32,000 nt of DNA from Promethearchaeota archaeon. Its GTDB lineage: Archaea; Asgardarchaeota; Hermodarchaeia; Hermodarchaeales; Hermodarchaeaceae. Position numbers and translations under genes: made by a program. The stretch lies in the NCBI GenBank assembly GCA_048938295.1, contig JBHLMI010000010.1, forward strand, positions 45,904 to 77,903. The letters are read 5' to 3'. Below the pieces are notes generated by a model, which searched no databases, was not told the DNA's origin, and was given only the letters and a program-made list of their open reading frames with translations. Below, one piece after another: positions 13,183-19,198 of the stretch (within the stretch, counting starts at the first letter, position 1; every line of letters starts with the position of its first letter).

Positions 13183-13358
13183 GAATACATTACCTCAAGG
13201 TGACAAAAGCTTCTCTCCTATTCAGCTTTACCCAGCAACAAAATCCAAGAAACTTGAGACGCAAATCCATTTTGAACACAATATTTTTAGTAACGCAGTG
13301 CGAGGAGGAACTTGAACCTGCTAGGACAGGTTGGGATAAACAAAGAGGTCCTAGGGCT

Positions 13359-14180
13359 TTGACCGTTCACAGCTTCTATGTCGTCGGATTACGCGAAGGT
13401 TTTCCACTTTATAGTCGAAAGTGGTCTCAATCCGATGTCGATAGTGCCCTGCTTTCCGGATTCTTAGCCAGCATGGAACACATGGCCCAACAAGTAGCTG
13501 CACAACACGTCAACGTCGTGAACATGAAAGACCGCCGGTTCTTCTTCCAAATCGACGAACAAAACGGATTACTCCTTGTCTTCATCACCGACGTCAGTGA
13601 AAGTTCCGCCCGTTTCCGTAAATACCTAGGTATCCTCAACAATAAATTCGTGAAAATGTTCAAAAAACAACTTGAAGAGCTCCACGAAGATGGTACCACT
13701 GACACAAAACTCTTCAACAGCTTTGATGAATTCATCGATGACCTTGTTCTCACCTGGTGGATGGGGGAAGCCACCGTGTCTGCCGCCAAGGTAATGGACG
13801 TGTTTGAAGTATTCACGCTCTTCTATAACACCATTATCCAACGGTTTTTCACAGATGTCACACGCCGAACCTATGGCAAGCAAATACAGCAACTCTTTGA
13901 AACGAAAATGGAGAAAATCCCGGCTCTTACAGGTATCAAAATCGACAAAACTGGTGTCCTCACCTACGAATCCATTGACCCCCAACAAGTCAAATACACA
14001 CAATTTCGGAAGGTACTTTTCGACATCTTCCATGAGTTAATGGTGCTCACACGTAAAACCCTGCCCAAACAAACCTACTACTCCCTTGTCTTCGAACACA
14101 TTAGCCCCCTCATCCGCACCGAACAAAGGCGGATGAAAACTTACTCTCTAACAGAAAAAATCGTGATGGAAATCCTATGA
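13359..14180 (+). CDS. Longin-domain protein with C-terminal helical extension
   Basis: From TTG 13359 the protein reads HSFYVVGLREGFPLYSRKW...DSALLSGFLASMEHMA...VNVVNMKDRRFFF...LLLVFITD...LNNKFVKMF...FNSFDEFIDDLV, the b-b-a-b-b-b-a-a longin pattern. ATGA overlap with the downstream GTPase. Confidence 0.75.
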   Translation: MTVHSFYVVGLREGFPLYSRKWSQSDVDSALLSGFLASMEHMAQQVAAQHVNVVNMKDRRFFFQIDEQNGLLLVFITDVSESSARFRKYLGILNNKFVKMFKKQLEELHEDGTTDTKLFNSFDEFIDDLVLTWWMGEATVSAAKVMDVFEVFTLFYNTIIQRFFTDVTRRTYGKQIQQLFETKMEKIPALTGIKIDKTGVLTYESIDPQQVKYTQFRKVLFDIFHELMVLTRKTLPKQTYYSLVFEHISPLIRTEQRRMKTYSLTEKIVMEIL

Positions 14181-17347: not shown

Positions 17348-18874
17348 TCAATGAACCAGCAGCGCTTTCTTAATGAAATCTGCTAGTTTGCTGATTTTGA
17401 TTGGATTTTCTTCACCGGTTTTCATGTCACGGACATTCACGGATTTCTTCTCCAGTTCTCGTGGTCCAACGATGACTACAAGGGGAATCTGCCGTTTTCC
17501 TGCGTCATCTAGTTGTTTTGTCAGTGACCATGAAAAACCGTTGAAAATAGTTCGAATTCCTGCCTTTCGGAGTTGTGAGGCGATTTCACGACAGGCACGC
17601 AATTGCTTCTTCGAAACAGCGGCGATGTAGACATAGGCTGGGGGGTCAGGTGGTGGAAGCAGGTTCATTTCCTCTGCCAGCTCCAATATCACCGTCTCAC
17701 CGAAACCAAATCCAGTTCCTGGCAGGCGTTGCCCCTCAAAGACACCAACTAGATCATCGTATCGTCCTCCCCCTGCAATGGCTCGGGGTAGTCCACTGCT
17801 TCGATCCCAAGCTTCAAAGACAATACCCGTATAGTAATCTAGCCCCCGTGCTATTCCAGCATCAAATTCACACACATCGGTGATCCCTAAATCCTCTAAC
17901 TGAGTCGCTAGTTGGCGTAGAGGGTCTAGGGCCTTTTGTGTAGCTTTATCTAAGGAAAGCTGTTCCATTCCTTGAATGAACTCGTTTGGGGTTCCCCGAA
18001 TAGCAGAGAATTCTGTAAGTTGCTCTGCCGCTTGTAAGCCTACTCCGGCTTTTCTAAGTGACTTAATCAACGCGTTACGTTGGAGTTGCGGAAGATTGGC
18101 TCGGAGTGTGCCGATCAGTTTTGAAGGGGAAAGTTTGGGCTCTTCCTTTTGTTTTCCAATGAAGTAATGTCGGAGATTGAGCGCGATTTCCTCGGCTTTT
18201 TTCGCTGGGGTACCGCCTTTTATCAGTTGGTCTACAATAGCCTCCTGTAAGACTTTTTCCTGCCGGTCTAAGACACGGATAATGTCGATGTAGTTAGTGA
18301 GCCTTAAGGATTCGATGAAGCTTTGAACCAAACGGCGGTCATTGATGCGGATGACAAAATCGGTTGGCGCAAAATTCAGGCTCAAAATAATTGCAGCGAG
18401 TACGTTAATGACCTCTGCATCAGCGGCGATATCCTCAGTGCCCAAGATGTCGACATTCAATTGCCAAAATTCTTTGACCCGGCCTCGTTGTTGTGTCTCA
18501 TCTCGAAAGACACGTGAAATCGAGAACCACCGGATAGGGCGCGGATAATACTGTTGTTGGGCAGCAAGCATACGGGCCAGCGAAGGGGTGGTTTCCGGAC
18601 GGAGGACTAATCTCCGTTTCTTCCGGTCAGTAACTTTGAAGGTCTCCTCAACCAGGGATGGTCCGGACTTGAGCTCGTACAATTCTAAGGGTTCAACTGT
18701 TGGGCATTCATATTCGATGTAGCCGAACAATTTCGGAATTTCACGAAAGGCTTGAAGTATCCGATCAATCTGCTGATAGAGTTCCGGGTAGAAATCCCGA
18801 AATCCGCCCACTGCAAGGTTTTTTCCACGTTTCATCGTCACCAACTCAATATTGTACCGCCCACTATTATTCAC
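17348..18874 (-). CDS. hisS: Histidyl-tRNA synthetase (probable start ATG 18835)
   Basis: GFRDFYP, LRPETTP, FRDE..QRGR..EF.Q, IARGLDYYTG.VFE, GGGRYD, and a C-terminal anticodon-binding domain. Confidence 0.96.
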   Translation of the reverse strand: MNNSGRYNIELVTMKRGKNLAVGGFRDFYPELYQQIDRILQAFREIPKLFGYIEYECPTVEPLELYELKSGPSLVEETFKVTDRKKRRLVLRPETTPSLARMLAAQQQYYPRPIRWFSISRVFRDETQQRGRVKEFWQLNVDILGTEDIAADAEVINVLAAIILSLNFAPTDFVIRINDRRLVQSFIESLRLTNYIDIIRVLDRQEKVLQEAIVDQLIKGGTPAKKAEEIALNLRHYFIGKQKEEPKLSPSKLIGTLRANLPQLQRNALIKSLRKAGVGLQAAEQLTEFSAIRGTPNEFIQGMEQLSLDKATQKALDPLRQLATQLEDLGITDVCEFDAGIARGLDYYTGIVFEAWDRSSGLPRAIAGGGRYDDLVGVFEGQRLPGTGFGFGETVILELAEEMNLLPPPDPPAYVYIAAVSKKQLRACREIASQLRKAGIRTIFNGFSWSLTKQLDDAGKRQIPLVVIVGPRELEKKSVNVRDMKTGEENPIKISKLADFIKKALLVH

Positions 18875-18889
18875 ATAGGTAGTGAAAAA

Positions 18890-19044
18890 TGGTGCCGGGA
18901 CAGGGATTCGAACCCCGACCTAAAGCTTTCTGCATCCCATCTTTTAAAATGGGAGTCCACAGGCTTCAATGCTACCATTGCGCCTGGGTAAATACCAGTT
19001 TACACCTTCGGGAGCCAGTGGAGATACACTGGCATAATCCCGGC
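18890..19044 (-). tRNA. tRNA-His(GUG) with three introns: 8/9 (19036-19007, 30 nt), 15/16 (18999-18978, 22 nt), 37/38 (18956-18928, 29 nt); CCA encoded
   Basis: Removing the three segments gives a 74-nt cloverleaf: GCCGGGA TG GTGT AATGGTA GCAT T GAAGC CTGTGGA GCTTT AGGT CGGGG TTCGAAT CCCTG TCCCGGC A CCA. Each junction forms a strict or relaxed BHB. The gene is adjacent to hisS. Confidence 0.9.
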
Positions 19045-19085
19045 ACGGTGCCCCGGCACGAGGGAATGTTGAAACAAGCCCTCCC

Positions 19086-19098
19086 ACAAAAAGCTTTC
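19086..19098 (-). promoter_or_regulatory. Candidate BRE-TATA promoter of tRNA-His
   Basis: Minus strand GGAAAGCTTTTTGT, about 42 nt upstream of tRNA G1, implying a leader of roughly 15-20 nt. Confidence 0.45.
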
Positions 19099-19198
19099 CT
19101 ATCTGAAAAGGGGGGAAGGCGCTTCTTCGTATACCTAGTATTTGTCTGCCTGAGGGCTTATGTTAGGCCCTCATTGGTTAGCCTATGATAAAACCGTG

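Follow-up and report, generated by a model that had tools for sequence, protein, structure and literature searches.

The 155-nt locus at 19044-18890 on the minus strand of the window (the whole 32,000-nucleotide stretch of DNA analysed here) is, by our reading of the sequence, the tRNA-His(GUG) gene of a Hermodarchaeota archaeon, predicted to be transcribed with three BHB introns, at positions 8/9, 15/16 and 37/38, and spliced by EndA and RtcB. We place the probability of this reading at about 0.9. The window lies on contig C61 of assembly G000 (2.52 Mb, 66 contigs, 91.6% complete), and the locus was compared with 16 orthologues, 12 of them full-length and from same-genus genomes and four from sister-genus genomes (G015-G018). 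In the order of transcription, the features of the locus are as follows.

19085..19099, minus strand: promoter-like element GGAAAGCTTTTTGTG, probably BRE/TATA-like, kept in all Hermodarchaeota orthologues
19047..19059, minus strand: 5' leader element, a near-copy of exon 1 plus two flanking bases (GUGCCGGGG), then CACC; pairs with the 3' acceptor strand
19037..19044, minus strand: exon 1, tRNA positions 1-8, GCCGGGAU
19007..19036, minus strand: intron 8/9, 30 nt; G015, G016 and G018 are without this insert at the exact junction
19000..19006, minus strand: exon 2, positions 9-15, GGUGUAA, unchanged in 16 orthologues
18978..18999, minus strand: intron 15/16, 22 nt, relaxed HBh' motif, present in 16/16 orthologues
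18957..18977, minus strand: exon 3, positions 16-37, 21 nt ending CCUGUGG, with the GUG anticodon inside
18928..18956, minus strand: intron 37/38, 29 nt, canonical hBHBh' motif on the anticodon stem, missing in G016, G017 and G018
18890..18927, minus strand: exon 4, positions 38-76, 38 nt, with a 4-nt variable loop, the T arm, the 3' acceptor strand UCCCGGC, A73 and the encoded CCA
18885..18889, minus strand: T5 run immediately 3' of CCA, conserved, likely an archaeal terminator signal
17348..18874, minus strand: histidyl-tRNA synthetase (HisRS) gene, 508 aa, 15 nt downstream of the tRNA-His gene; Pfam and NCBIfam hisS, 323 bits

Splicing in silico at the predicted junctions yields a 74-nt sequence, which ARAGORN recognizes as tRNA-His(gtg) in 16/16 orthologues. 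The spliced tRNA has U8, A14, G18G19, a paired D stem of 4 bp, a 7-nt D loop, a 4-nt variable loop and a normal T arm, and the GUG anticodon sits in a canonical anticodon arm and cloverleaf. A preliminary description of this DNA had proposed a tRNA-His (GUG) gene with these three intron positions and had predicted that splicing would restore U8, A14, G18G19 and a paired D stem; the identity and positions are borne out by the ARAGORN calls on all 16 spliced orthologues together with the orthologues that lack introns, and the restored features are seen in the spliced orthologues. A separate tRNA-His gene, which the same description had raised as a finding that would speak against the locus, was not detected: a custom scan of both strands of the 91.6%-complete assembly, which required a GUG anticodon arm and then a T arm and allowed for a 37/38 insert, gave no other credible tRNA-His. 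The completeness of the assembly leaves some room for a second copy.

Standard scanners miss the gene, as had been anticipated. ARAGORN reports no genes in the window when run without introns and makes a wrong tRNA-Gly call when introns are allowed, and Rfam gives no match in the window at the gathering score and, below it, a 19-bit partial tRNA match (E 0.29, positions 9-63). Genome-wide, ARAGORN lists only 35 tRNA genes, several of which, with introns of 400-1400 nt, are spurious, and this low, partly spurious count suggests that many tRNA genes of the genome are hidden by non-canonical introns. An ARAGORN call of tRNA-His(gtg) with a 14-nt intron elsewhere in the genome (contig C47, 58531-58636) proved to be tRNA-Ile(GAU) with an insert or intron in the D region. 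The 3' CCA is encoded in all of the roughly 33 tRNA genes of the genome that we recognized by T arm and acceptor stem.

The three introns share one architecture, which is retained in all inserts of all orthologues: two 3-nt bulges, a 4-bp central helix and an inner hairpin, the central helix pairing four exon bases with four intron bases, those standing ahead of the intron's last two. Departures from it are limited to single mismatches, which G014 and G008 have in the 37/38 helix and G017 in the 8/9 helix. At 8/9 the central helix is CGGG/CCCG, in which acceptor bases C3-G6 pair with CCCG, the bulges are AU^U and AA^G, and the inner hairpin has 7 bp (GCCAGUG/CACUGGC). At 15/16 the D-stem bases G10-U13 pair with GCGC (GUGU/GCGC), the bulges are AA^A and AA^U, and the inner hairpin is CUGG/CCAG; at 37/38 these elements are CUGU/GCAG, GG^A and AA^A, and an 8-bp helix. 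Each of the three introns has the inner helix h', which covaries at 8/9 and 37/38. The outer helix h is provided by the anticodon stem at 37/38 and consists of four weak pairs, three of them G.U, at 8/9; none was found at 15/16, so this motif is of the relaxed HBh' type, as the preliminary description had stated. The helices, bulges and coordinates that it named are each present on the minus strand.

This geometry is rarely reproduced by chance. When the inserts were shuffled with their junctions kept, the central and inner helices appeared together in 0.2-0.6% of 200,000 shuffles per intron. Across the 12 same-genus orthologues, 96.5% of cells are paired as the proposed structure requires, as against 39-48% when the partners are slid, and nine pairs are altered on both sides, six of the seven in the 8/9 hairpin and three of the eight in the 37/38 hairpin. 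The observed covariation was reached by 0/500 shuffles, a count that is not a probability because the sequences are related; the slid controls preserve this relatedness.

The orthologues also provide a direct view of two of the junctions. Both the 8/9 and the 37/38 inserts are missing in the sister-genus genomes G016 and G018, only the 8/9 insert is missing in G015, and only the 37/38 insert in G017. These intron-less orthologues read GGGAU|GGUGU and GUGG|AGCUUU, matching the predicted junctions exactly, and the 8/9 and 37/38 junctions of the preliminary description are thereby verified by natural alleles. Within the genus, the exons are identical bar two substitutions, one in the D loop and one in the variable loop, and the inserts vary freely.

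The 15/16 insert is present in 16/16 genes, and an intron-less comparator was not found among the 16 orthologues; a wider search of 200 Asgard genomes, by BLAST of the 3' half and by an anticodon/T-loop pattern, returned only tRNA-His genes of other families, whose D arms are too different to serve. The 15/16 junction thus rests on the geometry of the motif and on the D arm that splicing restores. The geometry is exact in 16/16 genes, the helices have no two-sided changes, the loop varies across orthologues in sequence and in length (21 to 25 nt), and one G-to-A change in the intron strand preserves pairing; removal of the insert restores a canonical D arm. One could propose instead that the insert is not cut at AA^A / AA^U, and is either kept as an enlarged D loop or removed at other junctions. 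In one variant of this proposal, a single large insert leaves a D stem GCGC/GCAU, as in the partial Rfam alignment, which does take GCGC...GCAU as the D stem. The missing comparator and the missing outer helix lend this proposal some weight, as does the suggestion that some D-arm insertions are possibly not introns (bioRxiv 10.64898/2026.10.13.758758). We nevertheless consider it highly unlikely. The Rfam D stem contains a C.A mismatch, and two mismatches where the intron strand is GCAC (G008 and G016), whereas the same GCAC change improves the central helix that we propose, from U.G to U-A. The bulges and the 4-bp helix are exact in 16/16 genes despite the variable loop, and splicing at the predicted junctions brings back A14, G18G19, a D loop of 7 nt and a D stem paired throughout, which ARAGORN accepts in all 16.

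Could the locus as a whole be a decaying or unexpressed tRNA-His copy, the working gene lying in the unassembled 8% of the genome? The incompleteness of the assembly (91.6%) gives such a gene a place to be, and the acceptor end, with U-1 and A73, is atypical. The exons, however, are invariant in 12 species-level genomes whose introns change within structural limits. Conservation extends to the promoter-like element, the T-run and the synteny with HisRS, and no other tRNA-His candidate was detected in the assembly or, by DNA searches, in the relatives. A decayed copy is therefore, in our estimation, an exceedingly improbable account. As to expression, no RNA run was found to contain the gene itself; two of four metatranscriptome runs yielded one contig each, from relatives of 90-95% identity, and the other two yielded nothing. 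The contigs are unspliced through the 15/16 and 37/38 inserts, extending from the trailer as far as G9 or exon 3, and they could be precursor RNA or DNA carry-over. Our functional reading of the locus as a working tRNA-His gene with three introns, including splicing itself and its order, is what we infer from the observed motif geometry, the covariation, the two intron-less junction alleles and the enzymes described next.

Two EndA paralogues are encoded in the genome. EndA alpha (186 aa, contig C1) aligns end to end with Aeropyrum pernix EndA alpha (PDB 3P1Z chain B) at 2e-45, keeps the Tyr/His/Lys triad, and has a lysine at the place of K44 in the crenarchaeal specific loop (L1/CSL), a residue tied to broad substrate range (PMC5829648). 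In EndA beta (196 aa, contig C19) the catalytic histidine is replaced, as expected for a structural subunit. RtcB is encoded as well (567 bits). For Asgard archaea, an (alpha-beta)2 EndA that bears the L1 loop has been described (PMC5829648; bioRxiv 10.64898/2026.10.13.758758, section 2.6), and we take the EndA of this genome to be an enzyme of the (alpha-beta)2, broad-specificity type, for which relaxed motifs are predicted substrates. An alpha subunit with the loop lysine and a beta subunit without the catalytic His answer to the broad-specificity endonuclease that the preliminary description had said would be needed.

In the pathway that we envisage, (alpha-beta)2 EndA would cut within both 3-nt bulges of each motif, and RtcB would join the exons to give a 71-nt tRNA with its encoded CCA. 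The 37/38 motif, built on the anticodon stem, can form within the cloverleaf. The other two take nucleotides that the cloverleaf needs, 3-6 of the acceptor for the 8/9 motif and 10-13 of the D stem for the 15/16 motif, so that both would have to be cut in a conformer other than the cloverleaf. The proposal that splicing precedes cloverleaf folding agrees with this competition of the two motifs with acceptor-stem and D-stem pairing. Two further parts of the preliminary description do not hold. It had considered the 8/9 and 15/16 folds mutually exclusive, but their cores use different nucleotides and fit into one structure. The overlap with the 15/16 helix is limited to the weak, optional 8/9 outer helix (C2-G10 and G1.U11, plus two G.U pairs in the leader). 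It had also derived from that exclusion a necessary order of splicing, but in constrained folds the three cores can be accommodated together, with a better score, at -62.5 kcal/mol compared with -56.5 kcal/mol for the fold with the local 8/9 outer helix. In other words, all three cores can coexist, and an obligatory order is not implied by the sequence. Constrained folds were used because free MFE folding of the whole precursor misses the 15/16 and 37/38 central helices.

A further element of the locus bears on how the 8/9 motif might form at all. The leader sequence GUGCCGGGG-CACC begins fifteen bases upstream of G1 and is a near-copy of tRNA bases -2 to 7, complementary over 9 bp to the 3' acceptor strand together with A73 and C74. 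It is present in 13/13 tRNA-His genes with the 8/9 intron and in 0/3 without it, among the Hermodarchaeota orthologues. The promoter-like element lies 30 nt upstream of G1 in the intron-less G016 and 30 nt upstream of the leader copy here; since the leader copy stands at the promoter distance that G1 has in intron-less genes, it should be transcribed.

Beyond these orthologues, tRNA-His genes of two other Asgard families show the same arrangement: that of G025 has copies GCCGGGA and GCCGGGG ahead of GCCGGGGU and an 8/9 intron, and family f20 has an exact GGCCGGGAU repeated 6-7 nt apart in three genomes. One tRNA-Ser(UGA) with an 8/9 intron likewise has a leader copy. All the 8/9 introns seen are thus matched by a copy, across four gene lineages from three Asgard families. 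The tRNA-Ser(UGA) of the present genome has no 8/9 intron and no leader copy, and tRNA-His is the one gene, among roughly 33 for tRNAs in this genome, whose 3' acceptor strand could also pair with a second site close upstream. A pattern search of 400 genomes for more 8/9 cases gave none that were credible beyond Hermodarchaeota, G025, f20 and the one tRNA-Ser, the other matches being chance matches in coding sequence or tRNAs with T-loop introns. The tRNA-His gene of G025 (contig C78, L159) has inserts at 8/9 and 29/30, and those of family f20 (L155-L157) have them at 8/9, at 37/38 and in the variable region.

Folding calculations suggest what the copy may do. In free MFE folds the leader copy pairs with the 3' acceptor strand in 13/13 intron-bearing precursors, and the 8/9 central helix forms in 10/13. 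With the leader present, the best fold containing the 8/9 helix beats the best acceptor-stem fold by 1.1-8.6 kcal/mol in 18/18 precursors, which represent only four or five independent lineages and were evaluated with nearest-neighbour energies at 37 °C that are crude. Without the copy, the acceptor-stem fold is ahead by 2.3-9.4 kcal/mol; the value for shuffled leaders is +1.9 ± 2.1 kcal/mol, and 0/200 reach the native value of -6.2. We tentatively suggest, at somewhat below even odds and on the strength of these models, that the leader copy is a decoy acceptor strand that keeps the precursor competent for splicing. The decoy would pair with the 3' acceptor strand and so leave exon 1 free to form the 8/9 BHB with the intron; after splicing, exon 1 would displace the decoy, and RNase P would remove the leader. 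If this is true, the transcript contains a cis-acting folding chaperone that makes introns tolerable beside the acceptor stem, and the decoy imposes an order on processing, with splicing before 5' maturation.

The copy might instead be the scar of a mobile-element integration, as in Caldiarchaeum, with no function as a decoy, and we regard this too as a serious possibility that falls short of being probable. In Caldiarchaeum the gain of an intron went along with a 5' tRNA fragment upstream (Sugahara et al. 2012, PMC3293823), and in G008 and family f20 the copy stops exactly at position 8, the site of the intron. A scar would not readily explain why the copy is kept in three Asgard families despite diverged intron loops and diverged spacers between the copies, why its substitutions preserve pairing with the 3' acceptor strand (98% of cells paired in helix 1), or why it changes the predicted conformer in 18/18 precursors; contrary to a simple target duplication, moreover, the intron does not lie between the two copies. 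An origin by duplication and maintenance by function are compatible, and the two accounts are not exclusive. Two other interpretations were rejected. A fourth intron separating the leader copy from exon 1 would have no BHB, as GCCG is unable to pair with GCCG, and the leader copy is not the true exon 1, given that its positions 7-8 are unconserved (AA, AU, AC, UC) compared with the invariant A7 U8.

The preliminary description had placed the triple-intron gene in the context of Thermoproteales, a framing that we would replace: the host is an Asgard archaeon (Hermodarchaeota), from a group with published multi-intron tRNA genes. Asgard tRNA genes can contain up to five introns, including non-canonical D-arm introns that annotators miss (PMC11291895; bioRxiv 10.64898/2026.10.13.758758), and the triple-intron gene is a further example of this documented trait. 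The closest parallels are the tRNA genes of Atabeyarchaeia, Freyarchaeia and Jordiarchaeia (Valentin-Alvarado et al. 2024, PMC11291895, and the preprint), which belong to the same phylum, with two EndA paralogues, and in which small BHB introns (~20-30 nt) likewise occur several to a gene, frequently in the D arm and overlooked in annotation. The lineage differs, in that Hermodarchaeota are not named in the main text of the preprint (bioRxiv 10.64898/2026.10.13.758758), which gives the class of the 8/9 junction only as a rare 'other', and the leader copy of exon 1 is mentioned neither there nor in PMC11291895. We found no description of such a copy in the literature searched. Thermoproteales (Marck and Grosjean 2003; Sugahara 2008; Kaneta et al. 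2018, PMC5829648) likewise have up to three introns per gene, HBh' motifs and the alpha lysine, but are of another phylum. There is no sign of copying of introns between genes here, the three introns having no paralogues elsewhere in the genome. In the Caldiarchaeum tRNA-Thr (Sugahara 2012, PMC3293823) an intron-bearing gene likewise has a direct repeat of its 5' end upstream, but that fragment is at least 1.8 kb away, flanks an element that encodes a recombinase and is polymorphic within the population, whereas the leader copy described here is a short element of 8-10 nt that sits 6-13 nt upstream, within the likely transcript, and has been conserved in several families. Elsewhere in the window, at 13200-14180 on the plus strand, a 326-aa ORF has a weak, below-cut-off match to the first longin domain of FUZ/MON1/HPS1 and is possibly a eukaryote-signature protein of the kind typical of Asgard genomes.

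The acceptor end of the tRNA raises a separate question of identity. tRNA-His usually has G-1 paired with C73, encoded in Archaea, or else A73 with a G-1 added by Thg1. In this gene position -1 is U (window 19045) and position 73 is A (window 18893); A73 is found in 16/16 orthologues and U-1 in all except G008, which has A. The usual G-1:C73 pair is thus absent, and position 1 pairs as G1-C72. In other Asgard tRNA-His genes, G-1 is encoded and position 73 is C. A search for the Thg1 Pfam family gave matches in 0/19 genomes of the Hermodarchaeota family (72-92% complete) and in 6/22 other Asgard genomes. Either the mature tRNA-His would lack G-1, or G-1 would be added by an enzyme that we do not recognize. 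The locus may represent an archaeal G-1-less tRNA-His system with the HisRS gene directly adjacent, and we found no description of such a tRNA-His in an archaeal lineage in the literature searched. The known G-1-less systems, in Caulobacter-type Alphaproteobacteria (PMC3064791) and in Acanthamoeba and Trypanosoma (PMC3561963, PMC4338351), likewise combine A73 with no encoded G-1 and no Thg1 detected; they pair G1-U72 and are not archaeal, in contrast to the G1-C72 pair and the archaeal host here.

Although its identity type is atypical, the anticodon and the linkage to HisRS still identify the gene as tRNA-His, and the tRNA-His/HisRS synteny is found in all Hermodarchaeota loci. The closest relatives of the HisRS, at 64-91% identity, come from Hermodarchaeota/Hermodarchaeum MAGs, with two named Odinarchaeota and Thorarchaeota. 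The protein is long, at 508 aa, with an insert of about 50 aa between two hisS matches, and its nearest non-Asgard relatives are bacterial (Gemmatimonadota and Anaerolineae, 28-41% identity). Several of the bacterial relatives have a tRNA-His gene just downstream, and the linkage therefore recurs in unrelated lineages. A bacterial HisRS link as the source of A73 was considered and set aside, as the tRNA-His genes that lie just downstream of HisRS at the Anaerolineae loci have the ordinary G-1:C73.

Heavy interruption of tRNA genes is thus extended to Hermodarchaeota, with a comparatively verified case that standard annotators miss, and missed genes of this kind matter for estimates of the tRNA complement and completeness of MAGs. 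The leader copy suggests how an intron can persist where its motif competes with a very stable acceptor stem. Finally, an Asgard family with A73, no encoded G-1 and no Thg1 found bears on the origin of the eukaryote-type A73 identity set.
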